Positions 13,431 through 41,763 of a stretch of 64,000 bases of DNA are shown here, piece after piece. Where the stretch lies: the sequence record MN871446.1; one strand, written 5' to 3'. The notes below the pieces were generated by a model, which was not told the origin of the DNA, did not search any database, and saw only the letters and a list, made by a program, of their open reading frames with translations. The translations under genes were made by a program, and so were the position numbers. The stretch's first letter is position 1; every line of letters begins with the position of its first letter. Source of the stretch: Klebsiella phage KpLz-2_45.

Positions 13431-13437
13431 TAAACTA

Positions 13438-15507
13438 TTAAGCGGTTTCGTAATCAGTAATCTGACGACTGGTGTAAATGAACCGGTAAGGGTTAGGTTT
13501 GCTGTACTGTGCTACCGCACCGATCGGCGTATTGTAGAGATGAATCTCGCCGCTTCCATACGTTTGGAAGCTTGACTTCACGCCGTTGTCGTAACTACAG
13601 CTGTAGAAGTAAGATGCCCCTCTACCATAAACGTTAGAACCTACCGTATCTTTCCCGACGACGTACAACGCACCTTTAATACTGTCGGTGCTTTGGTTGC
13701 CGCTGGCGATCGTTTCGAGGTGAGCCACGAAGGTATTCAACCCGTACTCTTCGATAGGGTAACCGTCTACATTTCGGTAAGTCGATTTGAATCGAATCCC
13801 GGTTACACCCGGCCCCACTAATGACCCACGTTTTTGTCCATTACCCGAACCGAAGTGATTCTCAGATACGCAACTGACTTCGAGGAACGTACCTTGTACT
13901 CCCAACGGAATTGTCTGACGGTCACTGCCGTGATAGGTACCGTAAGTCCCGCCGTTACTGAAATGGCAATCTTGAGAGAAGACCTCAGCCCCGTAGTTGT
14001 TCAGACACGCCGTTGAACAGGTTCCGGTAACCTCCACGCCCTTCAACCATAAAGACGGTTTCGCGTTGATCGCCACAGACTCAGCGCCCAAACCAATGTC
14101 GGTGTCAGAGACTTTCACATTGGAAACGTAAATTGTGCTGTTCCCAGTGAAATTCAGTCCCGTGTTCTTCACGACAACTTTAACGTTACTGTCAGGCTTA
14201 CGGCTGTTCGACGTCTGGACAATGATCGCAGTGGACGTCACGCAGTAGCTTCCTACTGTGGCCACTACCGCAGCAGGACCGTCTACTTCCACTAAGCGTT
14301 TAGGTAACCCGTTACTGTCTAACGTGCCGTAGTCAAAGACACCGGCGATATTTAGACCTGTTGCTAAATATTGATAGACAACGTTAGAGTCGGAGTAAAG
14401 CGACCAGTTAGTGATCCCCAGATCGCCCGTAAAGGTCGGTACGGTGCCACCGGTGCCATAGATACCGATCTTACGGTCATTCACTGTACGTTGAACGAAG
14501 AACGGTTTAGAGCCCTTCACGACGATACTGGTGGCAATAGGCGATTTATCAATTGCAGCGTTAAGAGTTTTCAGTGGGTTAGCTTCACTTCCATCATTCC
14601 CGTCTGCACCGAGATCAGAGTCAACGTAGTAGACCATCCCGTAGGGGAAGTACCATTCGCTCAGATCAAAGTCGGTTGAGAATCGCATCAGTCCCTGGGC
14701 CAACGCTCCCTCGTAAGGGAAGACCGCAGCGAGTGGATCAAAAACCGCAGGGAGTTTAGGAACTACCGGCAAACAGTTATTTGCACTGTCGTAACTGGTC
14801 TCGTAAGAAGGACCGGTCAGTTCCAGTAATTGCCCAGCGCGGAAACGCGCCACTGTATTACCCGATTGTAGCGAACTTTGAGTCATTGACAACGATCCGT
14901 CATTCCCTAAAATAATCCCAGTATTCGCGGCAGTCGGTAAGAAACTCCCTTGTTTCCCAACCACAAAGTTTTCGCCGTTAATTCGGCTCTTCCCAGAGAG
15001 CGTAAAGGTTTTACCGTCTGACTGATAAAGTTGATACGGGGTGCGGAGCCAATCGCGAATCGTGGTTTCTTGACCGAAATAAACTTCGAGTGTCCCGATG
15101 TACATCAATGAAGTAGCAACGGTTTTCAGTGTAAAGACACCGATTGTGGTCGTCAACGCAGTGGGAATGAAGACTTCCTGTTTGATATCGGTCATGTCCA
15201 GCTGTAGGCCGTACAACGTATTCAAACGGGTAACGATATCTTCGGCCGTGAATATTCCGGCAGTAGACATGAACACCACGGGCTCGGTCAGGACTCTATT
15301 GAGATTGACCCGGTTGTAATCAAAGACTGCTGAATCACGGTAGTCACCTGCATCGGTCGCTACCGCGGTGATACGCGTGTTAAAATTCCCGGTCGTCAGG
15401 GCAGTGAGGTTGATGAAATCCAAATCGCTTTCTTTAAAAAAGGCACCGTACTGCGTGTTCAGCTGACGAACCAGAAGCGCTTTACTTTTTAACGAGAAAT
15501 CTGTCAT
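13438..15507 (-). CDS. tailspike / tail-fibre protein A (receptor-binding protein, probable capsule depolymerase); N-terminal domain paralogous to B
   Basis: 689 aa. The N-terminal 280 aa share ARFRAGQLLELTGPSYETSYDSANNCLPVVPKLP with GRFRNGRLLETLGVNGETSYDATGNLLPKVPMLP in B. Then comes a Gly/Ser/Thr/Asn-rich beta-helix-type repeat region starting ...YYVDSDLGADGNDGSEANPLKTLNAAI. A lies 16 nt downstream of B, consistent with an operon. Confidence 0.8.
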   Translation of the reverse strand: MTDFSLKSKALLVRQLNTQYGAFFKESDLDFINLTALTTGNFNTRITAVATDAGDYRDSAVFDYNRVNLNRVLTEPVVFMSTAGIFTAEDIVTRLNTLYGLQLDMTDIKQEVFIPTALTTTIGVFTLKTVATSLMYIGTLEVYFGQETTIRDWLRTPYQLYQSDGKTFTLSGKSRINGENFVVGKQGSFLPTAANTGIILGNDGSLSMTQSSLQSGNTVARFRAGQLLELTGPSYETSYDSANNCLPVVPKLPAVFDPLAAVFPYEGALAQGLMRFSTDFDLSEWYFPYGMVYYVDSDLGADGNDGSEANPLKTLNAAIDKSPIATSIVVKGSKPFFVQRTVNDRKIGIYGTGGTVPTFTGDLGITNWSLYSDSNVVYQYLATGLNIAGVFDYGTLDSNGLPKRLVEVDGPAAVVATVGSYCVTSTAIIVQTSNSRKPDSNVKVVVKNTGLNFTGNSTIYVSNVKVSDTDIGLGAESVAINAKPSLWLKGVEVTGTCSTACLNNYGAEVFSQDCHFSNGGTYGTYHGSDRQTIPLGVQGTFLEVSCVSENHFGSGNGQKRGSLVGPGVTGIRFKSTYRNVDGYPIEEYGLNTFVAHLETIASGNQSTDSIKGALYVVGKDTVGSNVYGRGASYFYSCSYDNGVKSSFQTYGSGEIHLYNTPIGAVAQYSKPNPYRFIYTSRQITDYETA

Positions 15508-15523
15508 TTTAAATTCGCCCCAG

Positions 15524-17584
15524 TTAAGCGGTATAAATGAATTGATACGGGGTCAGAAGCTGTGTGGCCGGTTTAGTGCCAATGTCGGTATCGAACAGGG
15601 CGATTTTCCCTACTCCGTTTGGAATGAACGAGAACGCCGAGTTATCCCCTTTACAACTCCAGTACTGAGCCGATGCAGCGGTCGTCGCATTCGCACCGGT
15701 GGTAAAGTGCGCCAGATTACTCAACGTGTTCGTCACGCTATTGGACTGGCAAGCGATATTCACCGAGAACGTTCCTTCACCGGAGTCTTTGACGTGAGAA
15801 CCGTCACAATGGCTGTATACGGAGTTCAGACGCAGGATTGTCCCGTACGCAGAGAGACCGGAGGCCGCAGAGGTATGGTTACTATCAAAACCGCAGTAGC
15901 TGACTGTTGCTCTATTCTCCACGATCCAATACTTACTGTTCATCGCAGGTAATACACGGTCACTGTTGTAACTGAATCCGCCACTGAAACCAAATTGTGC
16001 AACACAGTCTTGGTGTGCAACGTTATAACCGTAGCTTCCGAAGGATGGGCCCTTGAACGTCCACCCGAACCGACAGGCGTTCATGTACAGATACCCGTAG
16101 GTTCTCGGTGTGGTCATGTCTGCGATAAAGCCATTGTAGGAGAGATCAAAATTACATTTCTCCATGAACACGTTACCCGCATCGGCGACTGACCCTGAGA
16201 GCGTTTTTGCAATCAGGTAAACATTACTGTCTGGCTTGCGGCTATCGGTTAATCGAACGTAGACCCGATTATTGGTGTTGTCGATGTAATACGAGTGCGG
16301 AGTGTTCGCACAGTCAGCAATCGAGGTCTTAGCAGTCATTCTCCCGTACCCGGCATCGCTGTATACCGTTTTGTCTACCACGGCAGCAATGTCACTGATT
16401 TTACTGTACCAGGTGTTGGCATCGTACCCTGACCAATCAGTACTTTGACGGGTGGAGGTAAAGGTAGGGTTAACGTCACCGTAACCAATAATATCGACCG
16501 TACGTTGGCGAATAGTTTGTGTCCAGCCAGAGTCGGCATCGTAGTAAAGATCCGCGTAACCTTTTACGCGAATAACTCTGGCAGCAGGCAGTCGGTTTAT
16601 CGCACGACGGAAGGTTTTGAACGCAGTCGCTGCGGTCGAACCGTCATTGGTGTCGGAACCGTCTTTGACATCAACGAAGACCACTGTACCTGTACCGGCA
16701 CGTTTACTGGTGACGTCGAAACCCAGAGAGTAGGTCAATGTCCCCGCATTCAACGACGCTGTTAACCCTAACGTTTCAGGGATCACTGCAAGCTGAGACG
16801 GTAACATCGGCACTTTAGGAAGCAAGTTACCCGTGGCGTCGTAAGACGTTTCACCGTTGACTCCTAAGGTCTCCAGTAGACGACCATTGCGGAAGCGTCC
16901 TATCAACGTGTTCTTGCTGTTTGGGTGATAGTCGATTGCCGGGATAATATTCCCAGTAGGAGAAAGATAAAGCGCAGTTAACCCGGAACGTTGCGAAATA
17001 GTACGGCTGACGTCAACGATGTCTTTCCCAGCCAGTTTCCAGTGACCGCCTAAAAAGCTGAGGGTGTTATAGTCACTTCCCACGGTAAACTGTAGCGCAT
17101 TGAAATATTGGTAAACCGCCTCTTGTTTGCCGAGATAGATAGTTACGCTACCGGTGTACACGAGGTGATTATCTGCCACGCTGACTGTGATCTTTCTGAC
17201 GCCAGTGGCAATGTCATCTGGGCGATACGGGCCGTCTACGAGATCAGTGGTAGTTAGGGCGAGTTGGTATTTCTCGTTCAGGTACGGAATTAAATCAACG
17301 ATACGAGAAAGGGTATAGTCTTCCAGTTGACAGTAGGGTCGGGCCAATAGCGTTTTAAAGCTCAGGCGATTATACTGTAATGTTACACCGAGCGATTGCA
17401 GGGACGAGCCGTTAGTGACGTTAATCGTCGTATTCAAACCGTTAACAACGGTAGTGTTAACAGCGGGTGTACCTAACGAGATTGACGAAGTCGTGTACAT
17501 TGTCCCGTTTGCTTCGTTAATCAGGTCAACGGCAATCTGTTTTGGGGTCTGTTTTAAATCAACCATTTTCAATTCATCCCTCAT
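15524..17584 (-). CDS. tailspike / tail-fibre protein B
   Basis: 686 aa. The N-terminal domain is paralogous to A. The beta-helix entry is ...VFVDVKDGSDTNDGSTAATAFKTFRRAINRLP. Confidence 0.8.
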   Translation of the reverse strand: MRDELKMVDLKQTPKQIAVDLINEANGTMYTTSSISLGTPAVNTTVVNGLNTTINVTNGSSLQSLGVTLQYNRLSFKTLLARPYCQLEDYTLSRIVDLIPYLNEKYQLALTTTDLVDGPYRPDDIATGVRKITVSVADNHLVYTGSVTIYLGKQEAVYQYFNALQFTVGSDYNTLSFLGGHWKLAGKDIVDVSRTISQRSGLTALYLSPTGNIIPAIDYHPNSKNTLIGRFRNGRLLETLGVNGETSYDATGNLLPKVPMLPSQLAVIPETLGLTASLNAGTLTYSLGFDVTSKRAGTGTVVFVDVKDGSDTNDGSTAATAFKTFRRAINRLPAARVIRVKGYADLYYDADSGWTQTIRQRTVDIIGYGDVNPTFTSTRQSTDWSGYDANTWYSKISDIAAVVDKTVYSDAGYGRMTAKTSIADCANTPHSYYIDNTNNRVYVRLTDSRKPDSNVYLIAKTLSGSVADAGNVFMEKCNFDLSYNGFIADMTTPRTYGYLYMNACRFGWTFKGPSFGSYGYNVAHQDCVAQFGFSGGFSYNSDRVLPAMNSKYWIVENRATVSYCGFDSNHTSAASGLSAYGTILRLNSVYSHCDGSHVKDSGEGTFSVNIACQSNSVTNTLSNLAHFTTGANATTAASAQYWSCKGDNSAFSFIPNGVGKIALFDTDIGTKPATQLLTPYQFIYTA

Positions 17585-17607
17585 TATACGGGGCGGTTAA
17601 AGTACGA

Positions 17608-17617
17608 GTCATAGAAA
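17608..17617 (-). promoter_or_regulatory. TTTCTATGAC motif 23 nt upstream of the tailspike B ATG (candidate late promoter)
   Basis: Member of the conserved motif family found at fixed distance upstream of tailspike genes. Confidence 0.45.
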
Positions 17618-17688
17618 GGTTTTGGGACAAAAAAGAAAAGCGCGAGAAGGAGACAACAGGAGAAGAGAGCAGACGCTCTCTTCTCCTG
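17617..17688 (-). terminator. terminator CAGGAGAAGAGAGC-AGAC-GCTCTCTTCTCCTG plus T-run
   Basis: 14-bp stem. Downstream on the minus strand is CGCTTTTCTTTTTTGTCCC. It follows the acidic-protein gene. Confidence 0.65.
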
Positions 17689-17692
17689 GGAA

Positions 17693-18100
17693 TTATTCAT
17701 CGTCTTCGAAGTCTTCCGGTACAGATTGGTAATCGTCATCGTCGTAGTCGTCCCAATCCTCTTCCTCGCTGTCGTCAAGTTCATCGATGATCTTGTTGTC
17801 AGCTTCTTCCATGAACCAGCCTTTCTCAGCCAGTGTAGCAGCAAAGACGTTGTTCCCTTCTTCGATCAGCGTTTCGGTCACCGCCCCTGAGTCATTCTCA
17901 GTAACGGCAACCACCGTGAGTTCTTCGCCGTCAGCGGTCTTATCGTTGACATCCGTTTTATAGAGTTCAAACCCTAACTGTTCGTTGACACTTTCTAATG
18001 TTTCAGAAAGGTCGAGTGGGTCAACCGGACGGCCGTCGTTGTCGATGACTTCGAAAGTCTCTTCGTCGGTACTGAATTTCAGGATAGTGCGATTTGTCAT
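17693..18100 (-). CDS. highly acidic protein (Asp/Glu about one third of residues; C-terminus DELDDSEEEDWDDYDDDDYQSVPEDFEDDE), candidate DNA mimic
   Basis: 135-aa ORF with extreme D/E content and very few K/R residues. Confidence 0.6.
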   Translation of the reverse strand: MTNRTILKFSTDEETFEVIDNDGRPVDPLDLSETLESVNEQLGFELYKTDVNDKTADGEELTVVAVTENDSGAVTETLIEEGNNVFAATLAEKGWFMEEADNKIIDELDDSEEEDWDDYDDDDYQSVPEDFEDDE

Positions 18101-18426
18101 TTCCAGTCCTCCTGGGTGCGTTTAATAAAGAGTGCGTCAACGACAGTCAGATCGACAGGGATCAGCTCAGTCGCCGCATGGGGTTGTATAAAGTAAAGCG
18201 TCAGAGTTGTGTCGTTGGTGAGTTTTCCAACCACGTTGTAAAGAACACCGTTGTACATTCCGGATGTGCCGGTTTTCAGATTGAGTGCAACAATGAGTTG
18301 TCGTCCCAGTAAATCGCAGTTGTTACCAGGGTAAGTGTCGCGGAGTTTAAAGAGTACTCGACCCACCTTTTCTTGCCATTCTTTCATTAACACATTGAGA
18401 ATCGTTTCTCTTGTAATAACCTGCAT
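18097..18426 (-). CDS. hypothetical protein (start moved to MQVITRETIL...)
   Basis: The ORF track starts at 18534. The internal ATG at 18426 has a Shine-Dalgarno AAGGAAG at -6. A TTTCTATGAT motif sits 22-24 nt upstream. Confidence 0.5.
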   Translation of the reverse strand: MQVITRETILNVLMKEWQEKVGRVLFKLRDTYPGNNCDLLGRQLIVALNLKTGTSGMYNGVLYNVVGKLTNDTTLTLYFIQPHAATELIPVDLTVVDALFIKRTQEDWK

Positions 18427-18448
18427 CTTGTCTTCCTTATTGGTCGTT

Positions 18449-18458
18449 ATCATAGAAA
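18449..18458 (-). promoter_or_regulatory. TTTCTATGAT motif 22-24 nt upstream of the 18426 ATG
   Basis: Same motif and spacing as upstream of the tailspike genes. Confidence 0.4.
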
Positions 18459-18547
18459 GTTTACTTAAAAATAGATTTGGGGTAGTCAAGAAAAACAGGC
18501 GGTATATTGCTATGTTAACACCTAAAATGAACAAGGCATAAGTAGCG

Positions 18548-18760
18548 ATGAACTATTCAATCATTCCCACCACAGCGCAAAAGATTGTTGAGATTACCCG
18601 CAGTAAAATTGACCCGAATGCGGTCACGCTCATTTTCGAAGACGGGGCAAACGAAACATTTCTGGATTGGTTTGTCCAGAAACATAAACCAGCAATCGGT
18701 CGTTTTCTGGCCAAAGACACCGACGGTTTCCTGCACGTAGTAGACACGATCGACGCTTAA
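18548..18760 (+). CDS. small hypothetical protein (70 aa), an isolated plus-strand gene
   Basis: Good ORF followed by a strong bidirectional terminator. It is divergent from the 18426 gene. Confidence 0.5.
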   Translation: MNYSIIPTTAQKIVEITRSKIDPNAVTLIFEDGANETFLDWFVQKHKPAIGRFLAKDTDGFLHVVDTIDA

Positions 18761-18769
18761 AAGAACACA

Positions 18770-18820
18770 GAAAGGAAAGGGGTTAGTCCCCTTTCCTTTC
18801 TAGTCTATATTGTTTTTCAG
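18770..18820. terminator. bidirectional terminator GAAAGGAAAGGGG-TTAGT-CCCCTTTCCTTTC
   Basis: 13-bp stem with T-rich tracts on both sides. It separates convergent genes. Confidence 0.7.
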
Positions 18821-19045
18821 GATGTCTTCGGCAGGGTAGAAATGATCTTCTACGATTTTACCGAATTGATGGGCGCCAGTGAGTGCGTTTTCTACGGGGG
18901 TGATGTAAGCGGCTTTATTGTCCCACGGCGGGAGAAGCTCTGAGAGCAACAGTGCGGCTTCGTTTAATAAAGCTAGGTTCTCGTCAGGGACGAATGATAT
19001 TGTCTCTTGTAGGCTCTCTAAGAGCGCTATACGGGGAGTAAACAT
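18800..19045 (-). CDS. hypothetical protein
   Basis: 81-aa ORF with Shine-Dalgarno AAGGG. Confidence 0.5.
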   Translation of the reverse strand: MFTPRIALLESLQETISFVPDENLALLNEAALLLSELLPPWDNKAAYITPVENALTGAHQFGKIVEDHFYPAEDILKNNID

Positions 19046-19071
19046 AGTTGACCCTTAAAGGTGAAATAAGA

Positions 19072-19089
19072 CAGGGACCGAAGTCCCTG
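19072..19089 (-). promoter_or_regulatory. 5'-leader stem-loop CAGGGAC-UUCG-GUCCCUG (UUCG tetraloop), about 25 nt upstream of the 19045 ATG
   Basis: Perfect 7-bp stem with a canonical UUCG loop on the minus-strand transcript. Confidence 0.4.
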
Positions 19090-19187
19090 AACTTATAAAT
19101 TAAAATGAATGTCTCGTTATTAACCGGCACTGTGAGAAACGGTTAAATAGGAGTAATCGGAGGGTGTCTTATTTCCTCTTCACACTT

Positions 19188-19200
19188 GTAATATAGATGT
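19188..19200 (-). promoter_or_regulatory. ACATCTATATTAC motif (minus strand), 14 nt after the tailspike C stop
   Basis: One of four instances of A(C/A)ATCTATAT(C/T)AC located in intergenic regions upstream of minus-strand genes. Confidence 0.35.
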
Positions 19201-19215
19201 GAAAAAGAATCGAGA

Positions 19216-20943
19216 TTAAGTAATTTTCATCCACCAAATATCATTAATAAAATTCCCATCGATATCGGTGGTGGTAGTATTAGATCCCGACCCTTTCAAA
19301 ACAGTACCTGGCATAGTTTTAATCTTTCTTGCACTTGCAACGGACACTGGTGGTTGAGATGGAATATAACCGATTTTAGGATCGGTAATATTAACATTGG
19401 TGCACGTTCCTGCTAATTGCACGGCGGCAGCGGCGGCTGTAATGTCAGCTGCTGACCATACTTGTGAAAAAGCAACAACGTTAGTTAAAACAGTGGCTGC
19501 TTTACTGTAATTGACCGTGTCTGTTATAGGTTTAAGAATATTTAAACCGTCATTATATCTGGCGTAATAGACCGAGTCCTGAATAACTAATCGAGGAACT
19601 TCACCCTGTAACAACGGGAAATTATTATTACTAGCGAGGTATTTACTGGTTCGAGAAACGGTGTCAATAAAGACGCAGTTCCTGACCACATTGTTGTAAT
19701 TAATGTTACCAGAACGAATGTTGGTGCAATAGTCGTAACCGGAAGAAGGATATGGTAATCGTTGAATACCGTCATTGAAAAAGAACGAAAACTCAACAAC
19801 ATTGTTACCTTGGCCATTCCTTCGATCATAGAACCATTGCGCCTGTGTATAAGTGCCGGAATAGGGGGCGTACGCCGCTCGTGCTCCACCTTGTACACTT
19901 GTAGAAGAATTGCCCATAAATAGAATCGAGGCGCCATTGTTGAAGCCAATGATATTTCTTGCCACCGAATCCCACGTACAGTAATCAAAATCAATGATTT
20001 CATTATCGGTAACCGAAGGGTGCATACCACCGCCGAAAATGTTTTCAATCATGATTCGATTACAACGCCATGTCCAAAACCCCGCATCGGCATATAGCGT
20101 TTCAGTGTTCTCTAACGCGTTATCCCATCGGTATTTTGAATACGTAATATTCCGCATGACTGACTGATATTTGTCCACAACGTAGGCGGAGTTTAAAGAC
20201 TCCACGCCAGCAAACTGACAGCCTCCTTTTGAGATTCCTGTCATCTCAATATTCTCTACTTTGACCCCGCGAGAATAATACGTCCCTTTAGAGTTGTCAG
20301 TAATATCATCTGCTTTCCAATGGTTCCCCACGATGTTAATGGATCTCGCTACATTGAAAAATGAAGAATTTCTGACACCAAAAACATTCGCCCTATTTGT
20401 GGCGGCACCATCTAAACGTATATTGACGGCGGAATCATAGTCTTTATGATTTCCGCTTCTGCCAATCGGATCGCTAATAAATTTACAATTATCAATCCAT
20501 ACGTCGACATCAGTTTCCACAGTTACCGGTGGCAATTCAAACCAAATAAAACAGCTACTGTTATTATCGACCGAAACAAGATTGTTTCGGGCATAAAACT
20601 CTATTCCGCTGACGGTAACGCTTTGTACCTTACGTGCGGTCAAATGCATTGCACGATAGCTATACCCATCGAGCGCAGTGGCAGCTTTAAAATAGTCTGT
20701 GTTAATCCATTTTGGTTTTGGTCCAGTCCCATAACTTGTAATATAAGACATGGTCCCCGTTGTGTTGTACAAAGAGGTTAAGCCAAAATTAACGTTCTCA
20801 TAAATAGTTGTCCCTGCTTTTAGTGCAATAGTACAAGGGTGACTGAAACCTTGTGCAATCAATGCAGAAAACGTTTTAAATGGTGAGTCTTTTGTCCCCG
20901 TACCGTTCACTGATACGGTAGGATCAATGTAATAATAGTTCAT
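19216..20943 (-). CDS. tailspike / depolymerase-like protein C (no N-terminal anchor domain; beta-helix from residue 1)
   Basis: 575 aa. It starts straight in a pectate-lyase-like region MNYYYIDPTVSVNGTGTKDSPFKTFSALIAQ. It lies 9 nt downstream of D with Shine-Dalgarno GAGG, which points to co-translation with D and possible docking onto D. Confidence 0.75.
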   Translation of the reverse strand: MNYYYIDPTVSVNGTGTKDSPFKTFSALIAQGFSHPCTIALKAGTTIYENVNFGLTSLYNTTGTMSYITSYGTGPKPKWINTDYFKAATALDGYSYRAMHLTARKVQSVTVSGIEFYARNNLVSVDNNSSCFIWFELPPVTVETDVDVWIDNCKFISDPIGRSGNHKDYDSAVNIRLDGAATNRANVFGVRNSSFFNVARSINIVGNHWKADDITDNSKGTYYSRGVKVENIEMTGISKGGCQFAGVESLNSAYVVDKYQSVMRNITYSKYRWDNALENTETLYADAGFWTWRCNRIMIENIFGGGMHPSVTDNEIIDFDYCTWDSVARNIIGFNNGASILFMGNSSTSVQGGARAAYAPYSGTYTQAQWFYDRRNGQGNNVVEFSFFFNDGIQRLPYPSSGYDYCTNIRSGNINYNNVVRNCVFIDTVSRTSKYLASNNNFPLLQGEVPRLVIQDSVYYARYNDGLNILKPITDTVNYSKAATVLTNVVAFSQVWSAADITAAAAAVQLAGTCTNVNITDPKIGYIPSQPPVSVASARKIKTMPGTVLKGSGSNTTTTDIDGNFINDIWWMKIT

Positions 20944-20952
20944 CTAAACCTC

Positions 20953-22776: not shown

Positions 22777-22784
22777 GATTATTC

Positions 22785-22817
22785 CTTGTAGAAAGCCAGA
22801 GAGGGATTCCTCTCTGG
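22785..22817 (-). terminator. hairpin CCAGAGAGG-GATT-CCTCTCTGG between E and D
   Basis: 9-bp stem in the 46-nt E-D spacer. The T tail is weak, so it may act as an attenuator. Confidence 0.45.
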
Positions 22818-22822
22818 TGTTA

Positions 22823-25501: not shown

Positions 25502-25544
25502 TTCGGTACCTGTATAGTCTGGGTAAATAAGAGGGTATCTAGAT

Positions 25545-25587
25545 CGTCATAAAAACACAAGAGTAGGGCCGATCGGCCCTACTCTCT
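25545..25587 (-). terminator. terminator AGAGTAGGGCC-GATC-GGCCCTACTCT followed by TGTGTTTTTATGAC
   Basis: 11-bp stem. The T-run contains the TTTTTATGAC motif, 44 nt upstream of the tailspike E ATG. Confidence 0.7.
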
Positions 25588-25600
25588 ATATTTTCAGCGC

Positions 25601-25810
25601 TTAACTTCCTTCTTCTTCAAAACGATTATAGGTTACCGATCTGGTGTCATCAATCAGTCCAGAGCTCTGAAGTGTCTGGTCAGCCAACATTAGGATAACG
25701 CTATCGTTGGTTTCCTCCGTCTCGAAGGTTGCTACCGCACCTTCTGAATGAGTAGAAGAAACCAAATAATTATTCTCTAATGCGGTTGTCGTAATATAAA
25801 AAGTTTTCAT
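25601..25810 (-). CDS. small hypothetical protein (69 aa) downstream of tailspike F
   Basis: ORF starting 4 nt after the tailspike F stop. Confidence 0.4.
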   Translation of the reverse strand: MKTFYITTTALENNYLVSSTHSEGAVATFETEETNDSVILMLADQTLQSSGLIDDTRSVTYNRFEEEGS

Positions 25811-25813
25811 GTC

Positions 25814-27796: not shown

Positions 27797-27823
27797 TGCC
27801 TATACCTCAGAATTGAAAGACTA

Positions 27824-27863: not shown

Positions 27864-27874
27864 TTAATTTGTTA

Positions 27875-30145: not shown

Positions 30146-30167
30146 TTAATTGAATTCCTTTAGGCAT

Positions 30168-30209
30168 CAAGAAAGAATAAAAGAGGGAAAGGTTTTCCTT
30201 TCCCTCTTT
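30168..30209 (-). terminator. terminator AAAGAGGGAAAGG-TTTT-CCTTTCCCTCTTT plus T-run
   Basis: 13-bp stem. Downstream on the minus strand is TTATTCTTTCTTGATGCC, a degenerate version of the TATG motif. It sits between the 30213 gene and tailspike G. Confidence 0.65.
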
Positions 30210-30212
30210 ACG

Positions 30213-30515
30213 TTAACTACCGAGTGTAGCGCCTAACAATAAAGCCAGCTCGCTCTCGGCTTGTTGCAAAATCTTTTCCCCATCCGTCGTCTCAGTCAGG
30301 ATTTTAAAGGTCGTTTCTCCCGGAGAAAATTCATCTGCTTCAATACTGAAATAAACTTCCGCGGTATCTCCGACAAATTTCCCGCCGTAGTTTATGCTCA
30401 GCGCAGTGTATGTTAAAGAAATTGTTCTTGGAATAGGGTTGCTGAACATCCCGAATTCTTCGACAGATTCTTTAACAAAGACCTCTTTCGTTATTGTAAA
30501 ACTCATTGTGAGCAT
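30213..30515 (-). CDS. hypothetical protein (100 aa) downstream of tailspike H
   Basis: ORF starting 4 nt after the tailspike H stop. Confidence 0.45.
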   Translation of the reverse strand: MLTMSFTITKEVFVKESVEEFGMFSNPIPRTISLTYTALSINYGGKFVGDTAEVYFSIEADEFSPGETTFKILTETTDGEKILQQAESELALLLGATLGS

Positions 30516-30518
30516 TCC

Positions 30519-35021: not shown

Positions 35022-35075
35022 ATCTCATACGAAACAAAAGAGAAGAGGGTCGTAGCCCTCTTCTCTTTTTTAGAT
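35022..35075. terminator. terminator AGAGAAGAGGG-TCGTA-CCCTCTTCTCT, T-runs on both sides; minus strand continues TTTTGTTTCGTATGAG
   Basis: 11-bp stem. The motif lies 24 nt upstream of the tailspike I ATG. Confidence 0.7.
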
Positions 35076-37288
35076 TACCAACTAGAAAGAGCAGCTCTTA
35101 CCCAAGTATTAGTTGCAATACAAACGTAGTAATAACTACTATCAGCCGCCCATTGTCCTACAGTACCGGGAGCTGTTGCATTAGCAGGTACTGCGACTTT
35201 AACGCCAACTGGATTCCCTGCCACGGTAACGGCTCTTGAAAAATAACCATCCCGCCACTGAAGAGCACTTGTCCCAAAATCATAAAGGTTCGTCGCATTA
35301 GGGACTACTGTCCCCATGAAGTTGAACTGACTGGCGCCTCCGTTAGCAACAAAATTCATACCGGATAAATAACTGGTTAATGTCATCGGTCCGGTGTTAC
35401 CAAGTAAGATTCTACCCCCTAAAGTCGTGTTACCGTAAGGATAAAAATCCAGTCTCCTGTCTCCACTTGTAGTGTTATTATTTCCTATTTGGAGAATATT
35501 ACCACTGGAGATAGAGGCTGTTGTTTTAATAAGGTAACCGCTTATCGTCCCATCCTGAGCCACCGAAAGAATAGGTGTTGTCGGGTTGAAAGCACCATCT
35601 GTATTGGTGTAATAAATAGAAAGGGCGCTGTTATTATCGCTATCCACATCGATAATAAATTTTCTCGTCGCTACTTTGACGTCGTTAATGATCAGGCCGC
35701 TAGTAATTCTTCTCGTAAAGTTATTGATGGCGCAGTTTATCAGCTGATAAGCTCTTTTACCTTGTGTACTAGCGCTGACGTCAAAGATAGGGGCTACTGT
35801 AGAGTTACCGGAAACTTCAGAGAATGCGCTGGAGAAATAACAGCTATCGAAAACACGCCCGGTATTAGTACTTGTACCAAATCTAATCATTGGTACGTGG
35901 ACAGCGCTGTCATAACCAACTGCGGACTTCCTTAAAGTTTGGAAAGTACATCCAGTGAATTTAATAATCCCTTGGTTGATGAATCCTAATTCGTAAGTGC
36001 CCGCTGAATCTGTTCCGCCAGAACCATTATCGGTAAAAATTACTGTATCGAAATTAAACTGCGTACCGCCGCCCAAATTAAACCATTTTGCACCGTAGAA
36101 GTGAGTCTCAATATGACCGCCTTCAAATTTAATGTTGTGGTGCGTACTGGAGGTAGGAGTTGGGTCTACTTTAATAGCTACGTAGTTTTTAGTGTACGTC
36201 GTTTCAATGTGTGGCCTGATGAACACAATGTTGTTGGAGTTGTCCGTGGCCTGAGGTAAGAAATGAATCCCTGTCGCAGGATTGTTTGTATCATTATCAT
36301 CAACGGCAACAAACCCAGTCATGTAGATACAGTCGAAAACCGCATCGTAACACTGACCGAATGTTAAAGCTTTAGTGGGCGACATGAAGTTAAGGTTTGA
36401 AAATCTTCCACCAACAGCCATTGAGTTAGCGGTTACTTCACTTCCGAGTTTAATGTAATAAGCAAAAATGCCCGGTTCTTTAATAAACGTTAACCCGTCC
36501 ATTTCAAGGCGCCCGCCCGTGAAAGTAAAGAGAAAATCTTTATTCACGTTAGAAGAAATATAAGCACCTTTTCCTAGAATCCTAAACCTTGGTTTTCCAG
36601 TCTCATAGCTGATAGCGCTTAAGTCTTTAACTATTTTACTGTCGAGTCGATATTTACCTGGCGGGAAAAATAACCACCCCGAGGCATATCGTTGAGCGTT
36701 AGAGATATTGATTTCTTTTTGATAAATACATTTATCTATTGCTGCGCTAACTGCCGGAGACCAATCCCAAGTAGAGGGGTCATTAGGATTATCTTTTTTG
36801 GTGACTAGACTTGAAAACTCCCAAATATTGATAGGTAGGCTATTTAATGCTTTAGCCGCGCTCTCCGCGCTTAACTCGATCTCTTTACGTTGATAGCCAA
36901 CTTCATCAGCTCCATTATTAGACATAATTCCATCAACGTCACCACGTATTACTTTTATACCGTAACCGGTATAATTAATTTTAGCAGTACCGTCCGAGTT
37001 AAAAATCTGTTCTGCAACTCCGTTGCGGTTGACATATGCTTTAACTGTCGTTTTTTCTGCATCGACATAAACGTAGAAAATTTGATTAGGGACAGTACCC
37101 GCAAGACCCGCTACTGTCGTAGTGAATGCGTTTTCGAAATTTAGCAGGGAGCGTAAATCAGAAATCTCCATCGCTTTAGATTCGGTTATTCCCGCTTCAT
37201 TCTGAGCGATAAATACGACATCAGAATCATTTACCGGTTTCGATGGTCGATCCATTTCACTGAGTTTTACAAAGATCTCACTGGCCAT
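35075..37288 (-). CDS. tailspike protein J (FENAY-type anchor)
   Basis: 737 aa. MASEIFVKLSEM...LRSLLNFENAFTT...QIFYVYVDAE. Confidence 0.8.
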   Translation of the reverse strand: MASEIFVKLSEMDRPSKPVNDSDVVFIAQNEAGITESKAMEISDLRSLLNFENAFTTTVAGLAGTVPNQIFYVYVDAEKTTVKAYVNRNGVAEQIFNSDGTAKINYTGYGIKVIRGDVDGIMSNNGADEVGYQRKEIELSAESAAKALNSLPINIWEFSSLVTKKDNPNDPSTWDWSPAVSAAIDKCIYQKEINISNAQRYASGWLFFPPGKYRLDSKIVKDLSAISYETGKPRFRILGKGAYISSNVNKDFLFTFTGGRLEMDGLTFIKEPGIFAYYIKLGSEVTANSMAVGGRFSNLNFMSPTKALTFGQCYDAVFDCIYMTGFVAVDDNDTNNPATGIHFLPQATDNSNNIVFIRPHIETTYTKNYVAIKVDPTPTSSTHHNIKFEGGHIETHFYGAKWFNLGGGTQFNFDTVIFTDNGSGGTDSAGTYELGFINQGIIKFTGCTFQTLRKSAVGYDSAVHVPMIRFGTSTNTGRVFDSCYFSSAFSEVSGNSTVAPIFDVSASTQGKRAYQLINCAINNFTRRITSGLIINDVKVATRKFIIDVDSDNNSALSIYYTNTDGAFNPTTPILSVAQDGTISGYLIKTTASISSGNILQIGNNNTTSGDRRLDFYPYGNTTLGGRILLGNTGPMTLTSYLSGMNFVANGGASQFNFMGTVVPNATNLYDFGTSALQWRDGYFSRAVTVAGNPVGVKVAVPANATAPGTVGQWAADSSYYYVCIATNTWVRAALSSW

Positions 37289-37320
37289 AATTGTACCTTA
37301 CTTTGTCTCTAATAGTCAAT

Positions 37321-37336
37321 TGTACATACGATTGAC
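37321..37336 (-). promoter_or_regulatory. TCAATCGTATGTAC motif variant, 33 nt upstream of the tailspike J ATG
   Basis: Shares the CGTATG core with the motifs at I, K and L. It sits in the divergent J/K intergenic region. Confidence 0.35.
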
Positions 37337-37373
37337 AGCTTGAAAGAATACGTTTCGGTTTATTATACATTAA

Positions 37374-37420
37374 CTAGAGAAGGATGCGGAAAAGCTCCTC
37401 TCTTTTTTGTTTCGTATGAC
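37374..37420 (+). promoter_or_regulatory. imperfect hairpin AGAGAAGGATGCGG-AAAA-GCTCCTCTCT followed by TTTTTTGTTTCGTATGAC
   Basis: Plus-strand copy of the hairpin-plus-motif cassette. The motif lies 27 nt upstream of the tailspike K ATG at 37448. Confidence 0.55.
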
Positions 37421-37447
37421 CATTTTTATTTACGTTGGAGTTGTGAA

Positions 37448-39493
37448 ATGACCGATATCACTGCATTGAAAATCTCTGAACTATCGCCCAGTTCTAATCC
37501 GTCAGAGAATGCGTTTCTTCCGCTCTCAGAAGCGAACGGAATCGCTTCTGAAAAAGTCAGTATTGGTACCCTCAGAGAAACGTTAGGTTTTGAGAACGCG
37601 TACAGCACGATTGCTGGCGCGCTCAATGTAACTACGGAAGGGAATGTTTTCTTTGTTTACGAAGACAGTACGCGAGACTATGTTTTGGGGTATGTAAACC
37701 AAGGGAACGGAACCTATTCTGCATTAATGTCAGACAGTACGACACAAGTTCGCTACGCGACGAATGCGCATATTGTCAACTCTTTATTCATGTTACAAGG
37801 AGTAGAAAGTTTCGATGCGTTACGTACCCTCAAACCGTGGTACGAAGGACAACGTGTCACGTTGAAGAGTTACTACAAAGACGGGGTTACGGGTGCTGGT
37901 ATCTTCATTGCGCGTTTAGGAGTAAATGCAGATGACAACGGCACGATTGCCGCGGGGAACGGATTCTACTGGCAACGGATTATTTCTGATAAGTTGTCTT
38001 TTGAGGACTTTGGTGCAGTCGGGGGCGGCGTACTGGACGATACTAGTAATATTCAAAAAGCGGTCAACTACTGTGCCAAAAATGGCATTGCACTAACGTG
38101 TTTAGGGAAAGTATACGCGGTCAGTACCGTAAATTTCCCAACCGATTTAGTGATCGATATGCGTAATGCAGTACTTTTGTCGCTGCCCTCTGTTACGACG
38201 GGTTATACCTTAACAATCAGCGGCTATTTGTCACCTGCGGCTAATCCAGGGAAATTTGATAATATTCGCGTTCAGCGTACCTTAATTAATACTCATCAAC
38301 CCGACACTAACAGTGTCGTAGACGGCGTGTCATTTGGTGTCGATGCGCACAATATTTCCTTCTACAATCTTAAGGTCTCTGGGTTTAGGGACGGGGTTTG
38401 TTTTAACGGGAAGAGTGCTTACCTCATTCGTTTATACAGCCCAATCATCGGACAATGTTGGCGCCGAGGGATGGCCTTTTATGCGAATACTGATTCTAAT
38501 GAGAACGTGACTATTTACGGTGGCGTGATTGCAGATTGTTGTAATTTTACTTTCGACGGTACCGGGCTCTACTTATCAGGGAGTGCCTCGAGTATCGATG
38601 TCAGGTTCTTTGGAACCAGTTTTGATTATTGCGACATCTCAGTTGATATTTATCAGTCTAACGTCGAGCTCCACGGTTGTCACTTGGAAAACAATAACAA
38701 CAACCCTCATATTCGACTTTCGTACACCTCAACCAAAAACCAACCCTATCTGATCATGAAAGGGGGAACAATGGGCGGCGGACCGAACGCGAACTCGTGG
38801 AGCGGTATTCCGATAGAAAATAGTACGGGTCGCCCTTACCTCGTCTTCATTACTAACACTGGCGGTGCCCACGTAGATATTGATGGAACTGACACCAGTA
38901 AATACATGACAGGAGTCAGGAGAACTACCGAGATCGTAGGTGTAGAAGGGGATAACTACCAGTTGATCGGGACCTTAAGGGTGAGGAACAAAATGACCTC
39001 TGGAAACATGGATAACGCCAGCCGCCCCATGCGACCTTGTAGTGCTCTTAACGTGATTCTGATCAACCAGTATCAAACTGCCGCATGGACACCGAGTTAC
39101 ACTAACGCAGACCTAACTTATACGATTGATACTACGAATTACTCTAACCCTAATTCACCGCACTCACGAAAAATTACACAAGGAAGCGTACGTAACGTCT
39201 CTTACTGGCAGGACGTGACACTGCGCGGCGGAGATATCTTCCACGCGGAGGCCGAAATCAAAATTACTTCGTTGACGGCTGGTTACGTCGCACTTCGAGT
39301 GGATTTTTACGACTCTGCCGGGAACGTAATACAATCGTCAATCAAATCTGTATCTGCGGTGACGACCGATTGGAATAACGTGTGGGTCTGGTTACGTGCG
39401 CCAAACGGTACAGTCAAGGCAAAAGTTCAAGAGTACTTAAACGGCTTTGTTGGAACAGCATATTTCACCAATGAACACGTTTGGATTTCTTAA
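37448..39493 (+). CDS. tailspike protein K (FENAY-type anchor); start moved from 37340
   Basis: The track start at 37340 extends across the upstream hairpin and motif. The ATG at 37448 (MTDITALKISEL...) has a Shine-Dalgarno GGAG and matches the other anchors. Contains FDALRTLKPWYEGQRVTLKSYY. Confidence 0.8.
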   Translation: MTDITALKISELSPSSNPSENAFLPLSEANGIASEKVSIGTLRETLGFENAYSTIAGALNVTTEGNVFFVYEDSTRDYVLGYVNQGNGTYSALMSDSTTQVRYATNAHIVNSLFMLQGVESFDALRTLKPWYEGQRVTLKSYYKDGVTGAGIFIARLGVNADDNGTIAAGNGFYWQRIISDKLSFEDFGAVGGGVLDDTSNIQKAVNYCAKNGIALTCLGKVYAVSTVNFPTDLVIDMRNAVLLSLPSVTTGYTLTISGYLSPAANPGKFDNIRVQRTLINTHQPDTNSVVDGVSFGVDAHNISFYNLKVSGFRDGVCFNGKSAYLIRLYSPIIGQCWRRGMAFYANTDSNENVTIYGGVIADCCNFTFDGTGLYLSGSASSIDVRFFGTSFDYCDISVDIYQSNVELHGCHLENNNNNPHIRLSYTSTKNQPYLIMKGGTMGGGPNANSWSGIPIENSTGRPYLVFITNTGGAHVDIDGTDTSKYMTGVRRTTEIVGVEGDNYQLIGTLRVRNKMTSGNMDNASRPMRPCSALNVILINQYQTAAWTPSYTNADLTYTIDTTNYSNPNSPHSRKITQGSVRNVSYWQDVTLRGGDIFHAEAEIKITSLTAGYVALRVDFYDSAGNVIQSSIKSVSAVTTDWNNVWVWLRAPNGTVKAKVQEYLNGFVGTAYFTNEHVWIS

Positions 39494-39506
39494 GAAGGAA
39501 CTCACT

Positions 39507-39728
39507 ATGTTTCAAGTAGGCGACACCGTTCGCATCCTTTCTTGTCAAACTCGAGAAGACTTAGTTGGGAAAGAAACGACCATCAGTGCACTGGACGCTA
39601 AACTGAAAGATTTGGCTTGGGCAGATATCTACGGAATGGATCAATATATTTCGGTGGTCATCGATACCGATGCACGGTTTATTGCGGCTCAATTGGAACT
39701 CGTAGCCAGTGACATTGAAGGCTCTTAA
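39507..39728 (+). CDS. small hypothetical protein (73 aa; MFQVGDTVRILS...)
   Basis: Shine-Dalgarno AAGGA. The start lies 13 nt after the tailspike K stop. The track start at 39447 overlaps tailspike K. Confidence 0.4.
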   Translation: MFQVGDTVRILSCQTREDLVGKETTISALDAKLKDLAWADIYGMDQYISVVIDTDARFIAAQLELVASDIEGS

Positions 39729-39734
39729 GTTATA

Positions 39735-39780
39735 GGCAATGAGGGGACCTAAGTCCCCTCATTGCCTTGTTTCGTATGAC
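39735..39780 (+). terminator. terminator GGCAATGAGGGGAC-CTAA-GTCCCCTCATTGCC followed by TTGTTTCGTATGAC
   Basis: Perfect 14-bp stem. The motif lies 24 nt upstream of the tailspike L ATG at 39805. Confidence 0.7.
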
Positions 39781-39804
39781 AATCCTCTTTCAGGAATAAA
39801 AAAC

Positions 39805-41763
39805 ATGTCTAATGAAACACAGAAAATTAGCGAGTTGCTCAATACGTCCATCATTTCAGAGAACACTATTCTTCCCGTAGTTGCTGCTGAAGGTGAGACC
39901 AATTCCATCGATATTATCACTTTACGCTCGGCGTTGTTATTTGATAAAGCGTTTGAGACTAACGCAGCGGGTAATGCAGCGACTAGTAAAAACGATTCTT
40001 ATTTTGTTTATACCGATGCCACCAAAACAGCCGTATTGGGCTGGATGAACCAAGGCGGGGATTCTTACTCGCCTCTCCTCGATATTAATGGTGCACAAAT
40101 CCGTTTTATTGCAGGTCAAACTATTCGAGGTCTGGATTATTTCACAAATGGAGTTAACTCGTTTGCGGATCTGAGAACACTGACTCCGTTGTATTCCGGG
40201 CAACGCATTAAATTAAAGGCTTGGACAGCGGGAGAAAAGACAGGCGGCGGTGAATTTATTGCTGTCTTCGGAACTGCGACTGACGATGCGGGCACTATCG
40301 CGGCCGGAAACGGCTTTTATTGGGAAAGAGTGATCAATGGTGGGCTAAATCCAGAGATGTTTGGTGCTATCGGAAACGGTGTAGTTGACGACAGTAATAG
40401 TTTATCTAAATTTCTACTGGCTTTAGCAAATAGAGCCAAATATTTAACCCCAATAACATTTGTTCCGGCCATAGGTTATCTCAACGGTATCTATAGAATA
40501 ACAAAGACTATTACTGTAGATGGCGGTAAAGTAAGATTAACTACCAACACTGTTGGTTGCATCTTTTGTGACCCTACAGGGACTTACGAAAGTACCGGAT
40601 GTATTAAAGTAACCAATAATTACCTTAACTCTGCTTTTGTTGGACAGTACGCAGCACTATTTGAAAATATTTCTTTCGTCAGTACAGGAAGAACACTCAC
40701 CGCAATTTACGCTGTGAGGGGAGATGCTGTGAGCGGTAATAACGGTGCGTGTCTTCATAATGTTTTTAAATGTTCGTTTAAAGGCTTCAGTAAAATTTTT
40801 ACACATGGACCTGGCGGTTGGGGTTGGAACTGGGCAGGTTGTCAATTTTCTGATAGTACCAATTTGATGGTAATTGAGGATCAAGACGACACTTATGAAA
40901 GGCATAGTTTTGATGGATGTATTTTCCAAAACGGAGGGGTTGCATTTACAATAAATAACCCCGATGGGAAAGTCTATTGGAAAAATGGTTCTATGGACTA
41001 CTGCACCGGCGCAGCTACAATTACCGCCGGTTTCATAGAACTTAATGGTCATTTCGAGTGGACAGCCAGAACCGTAGATTTCATTACACTTTTATCAAGT
41101 AATGCGGCTGCTTCTATCTCGGGTGCAATGTTTATTCGTAACAATACTTCTGGTTCTACCTATTACGTCATTAATCAATACCAAGATAAGCAAGTAAAAG
41201 TAGATAATTTGGTCGTTATATCTGACGGTAATTACATTGCCAATGGAGTACTCTCAAATAGAGAGTTGTTAAAGGGAACAATTTTTGCGCAGAACGACGC
41301 GTCTAAATCTGTGCTCTATCACTCCTCTGATGAAAATCTGATATCGGGAACTACGTCTTACCCTCAAGTAACTTTAACTAACACCACTCAGTTTTCTTAT
41401 TCGGTGGCTGATGGTTCTTTGACGATTAGTTGTTCTGCGGGCGGACAAAGTGGTTTTCTTTACTTAGATGTCCCGGTAAATAATAAAAAATTCTACGCTT
41501 ATAAAATGACGGCGAGTAATACGTCTAATGGTTCTGTGTTCCTAGAAAAAACCGTATTGAATGCAAATAAAGATACGATAAGAACCGATACCAGTTCAGG
41601 TACTACCAGCTGGGCAGCAGGCTCTAGTTCGGTGGCAGGAGGTACTGTGACTCTTTTATCTTTACCTGCGGCGGCGGCTTTTATACGAATTAGATTTAAT
41701 CTCTCAAGTATGACAACAGGAAGTACGTTTACTATCAGTTCATTGAAAACTTTCACTTTTTAA
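39805..41763 (+). CDS. tailspike protein L (FENAY-like anchor); start moved from 39739
   Basis: The track start lies inside the terminator stem. MSNETQKISELLNTS... matches the anchor family. Contains FADLRTLTPLYSGQRIKLKAW. Confidence 0.8.
   Translation: MSNETQKISELLNTSIISENTILPVVAAEGETNSIDIITLRSALLFDKAFETNAAGNAATSKNDSYFVYTDATKTAVLGWMNQGGDSYSPLLDINGAQIRFIAGQTIRGLDYFTNGVNSFADLRTLTPLYSGQRIKLKAWTAGEKTGGGEFIAVFGTATDDAGTIAAGNGFYWERVINGGLNPEMFGAIGNGVVDDSNSLSKFLLALANRAKYLTPITFVPAIGYLNGIYRITKTITVDGGKVRLTTNTVGCIFCDPTGTYESTGCIKVTNNYLNSAFVGQYAALFENISFVSTGRTLTAIYAVRGDAVSGNNGACLHNVFKCSFKGFSKIFTHGPGGWGWNWAGCQFSDSTNLMVIEDQDDTYERHSFDGCIFQNGGVAFTINNPDGKVYWKNGSMDYCTGAATITAGFIELNGHFEWTARTVDFITLLSSNAAASISGAMFIRNNTSGSTYYVINQYQDKQVKVDNLVVISDGNYIANGVLSNRELLKGTIFAQNDASKSVLYHSSDENLISGTTSYPQVTLTNTTQFSYSVADGSLTISCSAGGQSGFLYLDVPVNNKKFYAYKMTASNTSNGSVFLEKTVLNANKDTIRTDTSSGTTSWAAGSSSVAGGTVTLLSLPAAAAFIRIRFNLSSMTTGSTFTISSLKTFTF

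Follow-up and report, generated by a model that had tools for sequence, protein, structure and literature searches.

The fibre genes and their N-terminal modules

In a window of 64,000 nucleotides from Klebsiella phage KpLz-2_45 (MN871446.1), twelve large open reading frames (ORFs) occupy positions 13438-41763. These genes very likely form the receptor-binding-protein locus of a phiKp24-type Klebsiella jumbo myophage of the nucleus-forming family Chimalliviridae. The twelve ORFs, numbered R01 to R12 in window order, were all found exactly as originally predicted, with ten on the minus strand, two on the plus strand and sizes of 574-892 amino acids (aa). The minus-strand genes are R01 (13438-15507, 689 aa), R02 (15524-17584, 686 aa as a mechanical ORF, with a probable start at M7, position 17566, that yields 680 aa), R03 (19216-20943, 575 aa), R04 (20953-22776, 607 aa), R05 (22823-25501, 892 aa), R06 (25814-27796, 660 aa), R07 (27875-30145, 756 aa), R08 (30519-33191, 890 aa as a mechanical ORF), R09 (33275-34999, 574 aa) and R10 (35075-37288, 737 aa), followed on the plus strand by R11 (37340-39493, 717 aa as a mechanical ORF) and R12 (39739-41763, 674 aa as a mechanical ORF). 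An additional gene, R13 (41807-42373, minus strand, 188 aa), lies beyond the coordinates of the original prediction. The ten minus-strand and two plus-strand genes do follow each other in this order, but the run is not strictly consecutive, as a 1.6-kilobase gap at 17585-19215 with four small genes breaks it. The richness in glycine, serine, threonine and asparagine is real: these residues make up 32-38% of all twelve proteins, compared to 23.8 ± 4.0% (maximum 30.7%) in 22 other ORFs of the window. The mechanical ORFs of R08, R11 and R12 likely start too early, with the true start codons being the ATGs at 33167, 37445 and 39805. An exact-sequence look-up identified the resulting 882-aa R08 (30519-33167) and 652-aa R12 (39805-41763) as RefSeq proteins, whereas no exact sequence was found in the RefSeq collection for the 682-aa form of R11 (37445-39493). 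A strong terminator hairpin (39734-39767) overlaps the long start of R12.

The genes had been described as paralogues that share a small set of N-terminal modules in front of unrelated central regions. All-against-all BLASTP searches and alignments confirmed the shared modules, which fall into three mutually unrelated families. Class A corresponds to Pfam family DUF7941 and is found in R01 (residues 1-146, E-value 1e-18), in R02 and in R13, which is a stand-alone DUF7941 'virion structural protein' (E-value 2e-16) and matches PHROG 2935. The class B module of around 100 aa is present in R05, R08, R09, R10, R11 and R12 and contains the motifs K-I/L-S/T-E-L/M ... F-E/D-N/K-A-Y/F ... F/Y-V-Y/F. 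Class C, a module of around 80 aa with the sequence 'QPxGxT', is found in R04 and R07 as well as in gp300 and gp304 of phage phiKp24. The shared module is absent from R03, and R06 possesses only a conserved N-terminal peptide of around 15 aa, MLTDFNKPRGSNGEY. The term 'paralogous' thus holds for the modules but not for the whole proteins: paralogy over the entire genes was considered and rejected, as the common sequence is confined to the N-terminal modules except in the pairs R01/R02, R06/R07 and R11/R12. The central regions are indeed mostly unrelated; however, R01 and R02 share 27% identity over their full length, the bodies of R06 and R07 are 32% identical over 357 aa, and the first 100 or so body residues of R08, R11 and R12 are related.

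Two of the class B proteins contain additional domains between the module and the body. R08 consists of the class B module, two tandem T4-gp10-like docking domains (residues ~117-192 and ~214-290) and a beta-helix body; the tandem copies are indicated by PHROG matches and by an alignment of R05 with R08. Searches against sequences of the Protein Data Bank (PDB) matched residues 111-294 of R08 with the solved branching domains 9d80_D (E-value 3e-30) and 9d83_D (4e-27), and gave less extended matches to chains of 7rej and 7rfo named 'Tailspike protein' (about 4-6e-11). A shorter match (residues 136-192) was obtained with 6w4q, which is TSP2 of phage CBA120, and residues 328-422 match the start of the beta-helix depolymerases 6tgf, 7lzj and 7vz3. 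Literature searches for the codes 9D80 and 9D83 returned only noise. R05 carries a single T4-gp10-like domain (~113-187) between its class B module and a beta-helix depolymerase body (~235-892). In phiKp24, gp306 was proposed to be the primary fibre because of its T4gp10-like domains (PMC9700779), and a long N-terminal part with docking domains of the gp306 type is present in R08. Based on their gp10-like domains, R08 and R05 are likely branching hubs like gp306 and gp301 of phiKp24, with R08 as the candidate primary fibre and R05, placed like gp301, as a secondary hub.

Synteny with phiKp24 and the predicted enzyme bodies

The locus was originally thought to encode a hyperbranched adsorption apparatus with multiple specificities. 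This idea is supported by gene-for-gene synteny with gp293-gp314 of phiKp24, whose fibres have been imaged and tested for enzyme activity. Cryo-electron microscopy and tomography revealed branched phiKp24 fibres that rearrange upon adsorption, and 14 beta-helical fibres were predicted (Ouyang et al. 2022, PMC9700779). In the DepoCatalog study (2026), 11 of these 14 fibres were validated as capsule depolymerases, among them gp304 (K19), gp306 (KL137), gp308 (K46/KL146), gp310 (K61), gp303 (K64/KL178), gp301 (K35) and gp307 (KL114) (PMC13385381). The dUTPase gene (gp293), gp294/gp295, gp296-gp299, the order of the fibre slots and gp314-gp316 are all kept in KpLz-2_45. According to tblastn searches and global alignments, which were also evaluated in blocks of 100 aa, R01 and R02 are orthologues of gp294 (73% identity; 98% in phages MJ359, KpZh_1 and LPKP23) and gp295 (76%), R07 of gp304 (75% overall, 56-99% per block), R08 of gp306 (77%) and R10 of gp308 (84%; 99.5% to the LPKP23 gene). 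R11 is 85% identical to gp310, with values of 36, 64, 99, 99, 99, 100 and 99% for successive blocks, so that residues 200-682 are 99-100% identical. In other slots, identity is concentrated at the N-terminus. The first 200 or so residues of R05 are 81-91% identical to gp301 and the following ones 17-24%; R09, in the gp307 slot, shares 87% identity with gp307 over the N-terminal ~100 aa and 23-32% in the body; and R12 resembles gp310 over its N-terminal ~200 aa (62-70%), with 15-25% in the body. R06, in the slot of gp303, is 30% identical to that protein, and identity is only around 29-30% in all four compared relatives. R03 and R04 share 28-29% and 27-28% identity with gp313 and gp312, respectively, R03 being 100% identical in KpZh_1. 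R13 is 97% identical to gp314 and 97-99% identical in all relatives.

The original prediction proposed beta-helix central regions that should be recognizable by structure prediction. This was the case for R05, which was modelled with a right-handed parallel beta-helix central domain and provided the one confident beta-helix fold of this analysis, but not for R04 (see below). Small siphophages, podophages and myophages have fibres that share 44-46% identity with the body of R05, and homologues of this body carry T7-tail-fibre, TSP1/Gp66 or prophage-tail-fibre N-termini. Taken together with those of R12, the body homologues are joined to many anchors, including T7 tail-fibre, TSP1/Gp66, P22 head-binding and prophage tail-fibre N-terminal domains. 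A profile built from homologues of the R12 body matches the beta-helix enzymes and depolymerases 5m5z, 7vyv, 7chu, 6e0v and 4oj5, mostly via regions of the homologues located just upstream of the body, and four of the homologues contain PF12708. The same pectate-lyase-like Pfam family is present in P0038, a homologue of the R09 body with 46% identity, and R09 itself gave a weak match to Phage_depo_C. For R07, R08, R10 and R11, the fold is carried over from the validated orthologues. A beta-helix in R01, R02, R03 and R06 is suggested by the published phiKp24 models, by PHROG 'hydrolase' matches and by 59% identity to annotated fibres; residues 281-622 of R02 match PHROG 'hydrolase' and 'tail fiber' families.

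These relationships permit graded predictions of capsule specificity. As the R11 body is almost identical to gp310, there is a strong case, drawn from the alignment, for R11 being a K61 depolymerase, and R10 is probably a K46/KL146 depolymerase, judging by its identity to gp308. R08 and R07 may possibly recognize KL137 and K19, like gp306 and gp304; this assignment is kept weaker because the C-terminal blocks fall to 56-80% identity. Most of the bodies are still candidates for glycan enzymes of distinct specificity, as had been suggested for all twelve; however, R01 and R02 are conserved core fibres and R04 lacks evidence for a beta-helix, so that, by our own estimate, the array probably covers 8-10 distinct capsule specificities and not 12.

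Several observations weigh against reading the locus as a branched apparatus of trimeric beta-helix depolymerases. The class B module occurs in six proteins including the proposed primary fibre, and the module alone cannot, therefore, name the fibre that contacts the baseplate. An AlphaFold2 (AF2) model of R04, built from an alignment of four sequences, reached a mean predicted local distance difference test score (pLDDT) of 50 and gave no evidence for a beta-helix in the body. Searches with single sequences against PDB sequences yielded nothing significant for R02, R03, R04, R05, R06 and R10; R08 alone produced matches in this type of search. The phiKp24 proteins gp294, gp295 and gp313 are absent from the catalogue of validated enzymes (PMC13385381); presumably, they are the three unconfirmed fibres of the 14, and the orthologues R01-R03 are putative enzymes. 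Furthermore, trimerisation is an assumption, as the AF2 models are monomeric, and a literature search for KpLz retrieved no phage paper and no experimental data for KpLz-2_45. A profile of four sequences (R01, R02, gp294 and gp295) gave only a marginal PDB match to 7v6m (E-value 3e-4 over around 50 residues).

Part of this evidence could also mean that several of the twelve proteins are non-enzymatic structural or adhesin fibres. Candidates are R04 and possibly R01 and R02, a conserved pair that would then have a host-independent role in baseplate architecture or in binding of a secondary receptor. In that case, the specificities would be markedly fewer than the genes. We regard this as quite possible, although somewhat less probable than not. 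The R04 model is non-beta-helical and of low confidence, neither of the phiKp24 papers (PMC9700779, PMC13385381) names gp312 among the depolymerases, and gp294 and gp295 are missing from the validated catalogue. R01 and R02 are 98% conserved among close relatives in which neighbouring slots have been swapped. Furthermore, four jumbo phages of Serratia and Pectobacterium (Moabite, 2050HW, BUCT660 and vB_ParM-25) encode counterparts of the R01 and R02 bodies with 41% identity, at two places per genome, so that both paralogues are present. This conservation across host genera indicates that R01 and R02 are core fibres and not capsule-type cassettes, and the stand-alone module protein R13 could be an adaptor or baseplate socket. 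However, R01 and R02 carry the N-cap motif 'YVD..G.D.NDGS....F.T' and match PHROG 'hydrolase', related records are annotated as 'pectin lyase', and the published models of gp294 and gp295 are beta-helical, a glycosidase fold being predicted for them (PMC9700779). The presence of some non-enzymatic fibres is compatible with a phiKp24-type receptor-binding locus and merely trims the number of specificities.

Cassette exchange and the R04/R03 pair

The bodies of several fibres appear to be exchanged as cassettes. Positions 12000-25589 of the window are 98.6% identical to KpZh_1, whereas no DNA match was found in KpZh_1 for 25590-27749 (a 69-aa ORF and R06 up to codon ~15), 30206-32023 (a 100-aa ORF and the R08 body) and 35043-37408 (R10, which is replaced in KpZh_1); the R07 stretch at 27750-30205 is only 76% identical. 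The breakpoints lie at the junction between anchor and body on one side and at a terminator hairpin on the other. The R06 replacement, for example, ends at 27750, close to codon 15, and its left edge is marked by a bidirectional GC-rich terminator hairpin at 25559-25586. Both K60PH164C1 (Schitoviridae) and KpS110 (Ackermannviridae) have fibres that share 59% identity with the R06 body. A second case concerns R11: positions 37931-39828, which comprise its body and a 73-aa ORF, are 94.4% identical to phiKp24 at the nucleotide level, compared to a background of 65-81%. The N-terminal module of R11 is a class B module of the gp309 type, whereas R12 carries the gp310-type module in front of an unrelated body. 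From the sequences, the validated K61 cassette appears to have moved recently across genera as well as across slots.

A short nucleotide element recurs in front of three class B genes. The exact 12-mer TTGTTTCGTATG has only three copies in the 64 kilobases (35026-35037, minus strand; 37407-37418 and 39767-39778, plus strand), each of which lies 27 nucleotides upstream of an ATG, namely those of R09, R11 and R12; at R09 and R12, it is immediately preceded by a GC-rich hairpin. The copy at R11 is located in the divergent intergenic region between R10 and R11 (37289-37444). By its positions, the 12-mer might represent a common leader or promoter element, copied along with the class B anchor. The phiKp24 annotation has divergent promoters at its own strand-switch point. 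Scans for sigma-70 promoters in the window gave hits at the level of shuffled sequences (39 vs 33 ± 6 and 21 vs 18 ± 4), and therefore no promoters are claimed.

Three small genes accompany particular bodies. Directly downstream of R06 lies the 69-aa ORF (25601-25810, minus strand), which is 39% identical (E-value 9e-12) to gene 115 of KpS110, the gene that follows the R06-like fibre gene 114, and shares 31% identity with an ORF, not annotated, that follows the R06-like gene in K60PH164C1; members of this family are thus found beside R06-type bodies in Chimalliviridae, Ackermannviridae and Schitoviridae. The 100-aa ORF (30213-30515, minus strand) directly downstream of R08 is 51% identical to gp305 of phiKp24 and belongs to PHROG 7836. 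It is absent from KpZh_1, LPKP23 and MJ359 and occurs only where a gp306-type body is present. The 73-aa ORF (39507-39728, plus strand) directly downstream of R11 is an orthologue of phiKp24 gp311, from which it differs in one residue, and is found only in phages carrying a gp310-type body. None of the three belongs to a family of known function; their products might act as assembly chaperones or docking adaptors, each for its own body.

R04 and R03 seem to form another linked unit. R04 is composed of the class C module (residues ~1-90), a helix (94-115) and a body whose full length has only four homologues among 5.8 billion proteins. In a Foldseek search with the R04 model, only the N-terminal ~90 aa produced matches, which were weak and included the N-terminal domains of CBA120 TSP1 and TSP3, T4 gp9 and the N-terminus of the P1 tailspike. 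R03 is anchorless and begins directly with the motif 'YYIDP..G.G....PF.T'. In at least eight phage lineages of different families, an R03-like gene is located immediately downstream of an R04-like gene, with order and shared strand preserved, and the identities of both to the KpLz-2_45 proteins co-vary: 58% (R04-like) and 61% (R03-like) in KpHz_2/KpGz_1, 37% and 44% in Magnus/Madison, 26% and 31% in K15PH90, 31% each in LASTA/SJM3, 29% and 31% in vB_Kp_H02, 27.5% and 27% in KpS110 (genes 112/113), and 27-28% and 28-29% in phiKp24 (gp312/gp313). The adjacency and the co-varying identity argue for a two-gene unit, with R04 probably serving as a carrier or adaptor fibre for R03. In gp312 of phiKp24, an additional class B N-terminal module is fused in front of the R04-like unit.

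A different role has been proposed for such anchorless enzymes. Phage 1513 has an anchorless extra depolymerase, a homologue of R03, which Latka et al. (2019) suggested to be soluble (PMC6872550). R03, without any shared N-terminal module, and R06, with only its ~15 conserved residues, might accordingly be soluble depolymerases that are released at lysis and strip the capsule of neighbouring cells. We consider this unlikely. The constant position of R03-like genes directly downstream of R04-like genes and their co-variation in at least eight unrelated lineages fit a physical partnership, conservation of the 15-aa R06 peptide extends precisely to the recombination junction, as it should for a docking peptide, and gp303, which occupies the R06 slot in phiKp24, was counted among the tail fibres (PMC9700779). 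As for virion-bound fibres, it is tempting to speculate that the unit of exchange exceeds the bare enzyme domain and comprises either a body together with its dedicated small downstream gene or the pair R04-R03, as a carrier fibre that is no beta-helix and an anchorless beta-helix enzyme, although this idea is tentative and we hold it to be possible rather than probable. If it were true, several Klebsiella phages would have their anchorless 'extra depolymerases' bound to the virion via a dedicated partner, and these enzymes would not be soluble.

In the scheme that we infer for virion incorporation, docking partners, trimer formation and the individual enzyme activities and specificities, the fibres would be built of swappable parts, with the N-terminal module setting the slot in the virion and the C-terminal enzyme body setting the capsule type. 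R08, with its anchor and two gp10-like domains, and R05, with its anchor and one, would act as branching hubs. The proteins R09-R12, which have only the class B module, the class C proteins R04 and R07, and R06 with its short peptide would dock on the hubs or on the baseplate, and R03 would probably ride on R04. Most bodies are predicted to be trimeric parallel beta-helix capsule depolymerases, each acting on one or a few capsule types (K-types), which would allow adsorption to many capsule types, while R01, R02 and R13, which share the DUF7941 anchor, would form a core, non-variable fibre set. The locus would evolve as cassettes are replaced at the boundary of anchor and body, and in many cases a small downstream ORF and a terminator would be exchanged as well.

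Genome context and comparison with known systems

Seven of the eight proteins that were looked up (R03, R06, R07, R08, R09, R10 and R12) are identical to RefSeq entries in the range YP_010297670-682 of KpLz-2_45, whose genome of 296,707 base pairs is assigned to Siatvirus, Chimalliviridae, in the NCBI taxonomy; Maaswegvirus, with phiKp24 and Centimanus, is another genus of this family. The RefSeq names at the locus are generic, such as 'tail fiber protein', 'tail protein', 'EPS depolymerase' (R12) and 'hypothetical protein'. In a megablast search of the phage collection, the closest records were unannotated entries of around 300 kilobases of the Serratia phage KpZh_1 type (97% identity, 66% query coverage), followed by LPKP23 and MJ359, with phiKp24 and Centimanus farther away. 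The nearest relatives are filed in GenBank under MN871444-MN871453 (L003 being MN871452) as unannotated 'UNVERIFIED_ORG: Serratia phage Kp...'. Despite the Serratia label, these phages were isolated on Klebsiella pneumoniae. Compared to the window, entire cassettes are different in their fibre loci.

The four small genes that interrupt the array (17693-18100, minus; 18097-18534, minus; 18548-18760, plus; and 18800-19045, minus) are orthologues of phiKp24 gp296-gp299, with 94-100% identity in close relatives and 59-83% in phiKp24; Pfam and PHROG searches gave no match. The first of them, a 135-aa ORF, has a very acidic C-terminal tail ending with EEEDWDDYDDDDYQSVPEDFEDDE and is 100% conserved in close relatives and 67% identical to phiKp24 gp296; it has no family match. 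A bidirectional terminator (41771-41798) separates the converging genes R12 and R13, and phiKp24 is annotated with terminators at the equivalent place. Elsewhere in the window, there are split multisubunit phiKZ-type RNA-polymerase beta genes (50984-57118, minus strand), a gene for a tail protein of 2197 aa that includes a transglycosylase domain (57163-63756, plus strand), a NadR-like nicotinamide mononucleotide (NMN) adenylyltransferase (6062-7273, minus strand), near which PnuC is encoded in relatives, and a DUF488-N3a protein (42423-42881, minus strand), all of which are consistent with the placement in Chimalliviridae. A head maturation protease is also encoded in the window.

KpLz-2_45 is an uncharacterised member of a type of system that has recently been well studied; its genome is already in RefSeq, and the understanding of the mechanism is unchanged. 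Among the known Klebsiella phages, multi-depolymerase jumbo phages have the broadest host range; they are also a source of capsule enzymes for typing and therapy, and the bodies that are absent from tested relatives (R05, R06, R09, R12 and the R04/R03 pair) are candidate enzymes for K-types that have not been covered so far. In addition, the locus provides natural modularity experiments, such as the K61 body on another anchor, and junctions mapped within a few codons of the anchor/body boundary can guide the design of chimeric fibres.

The parallel to multi-depolymerase Klebsiella jumbo phages drawn in the original prediction holds, with phiKp24 (vB_KpM_FBKp24, Maaswegvirus) and not PhiK64-1/RaK2 as the closest system. 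Membership of the array in the PhiK64-1/RaK2 (Alcyoneusvirus) system was rejected as practically negligible in probability, as neither phage was among the 11 records matched by megablast, the synteny, anchors and flanking genes are of the phiKp24/Chimalliviridae type and the taxon is Siatvirus, so that only an analogy remains. KpLz-2_45 and phiKp24 share the dUTPase flank, the flanking DUF7941 'virion structural protein', the slot order, the three anchor families, the gp10-like hub, the small ORFs, the terminators and six full-length orthologous fibres (R01, R02, R07, R08, R10 and R11). However, the two phages belong to different genera with around 70-80% nucleotide identity, and there are 12 large genes here compared to 13 in phiKp24. 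Bodies of the gp300 and gp309 types are absent here, those of R05, R06, R09 and R12 have been replaced, and the gp300 slot is taken by the gp312/gp313-type pair (R04/R03), which lies on the other strand. The K61 body is attached to a gp309-type and not to a gp310-type anchor. R10, a gene of the gp308 type, is encoded on the minus strand in both KpLz-2_45 and LPKP23 and on the plus strand in phiKp24, opposite with respect to the flanks; by this inversion, the divergent promoter region is moved by one gene. Branching has been seen by cryo-electron microscopy and tomography only in phiKp24 and is predicted for KpLz-2_45.

Phage KluzKp13 (vB_KpnM_KluzKp13, Maaswegvirus), whose fibres CDS_0178-0191 were enzyme-tested in DepoCatalog, possesses the same anchor families: CDS_0191 has an R12-type, CDS_0185 an R08-type and CDS_0178 an R04-type module at its start. 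Their lengths of 728, 952 and 803 aa, compared to 652, 882 and 607 aa here, indicate, as far as length can tell, that the bodies differ. TSP1-4 of CBA120 and gp66/gp63.1 of G7C resemble the KpLz-2_45 system in that the T4-gp10-like domains of a hub fibre are docking sites for others; however, these phages have 2-4 fibres compared to about 12 here, and the class B and DUF7941 anchors are additional in KpLz-2_45. In phages of the Menlow group (KpS110, 0507-KN2-1) and in PhiK64-1/RaK2, several depolymerase fibres are likewise joined via conserved peptides and gp10-like domains, and KpS110 genes 112-115 encode homologues of R04, R03, R06 and the small ORF in the same order. These phages, however, belong to unrelated families and use other anchors, with cassettes alone in common.

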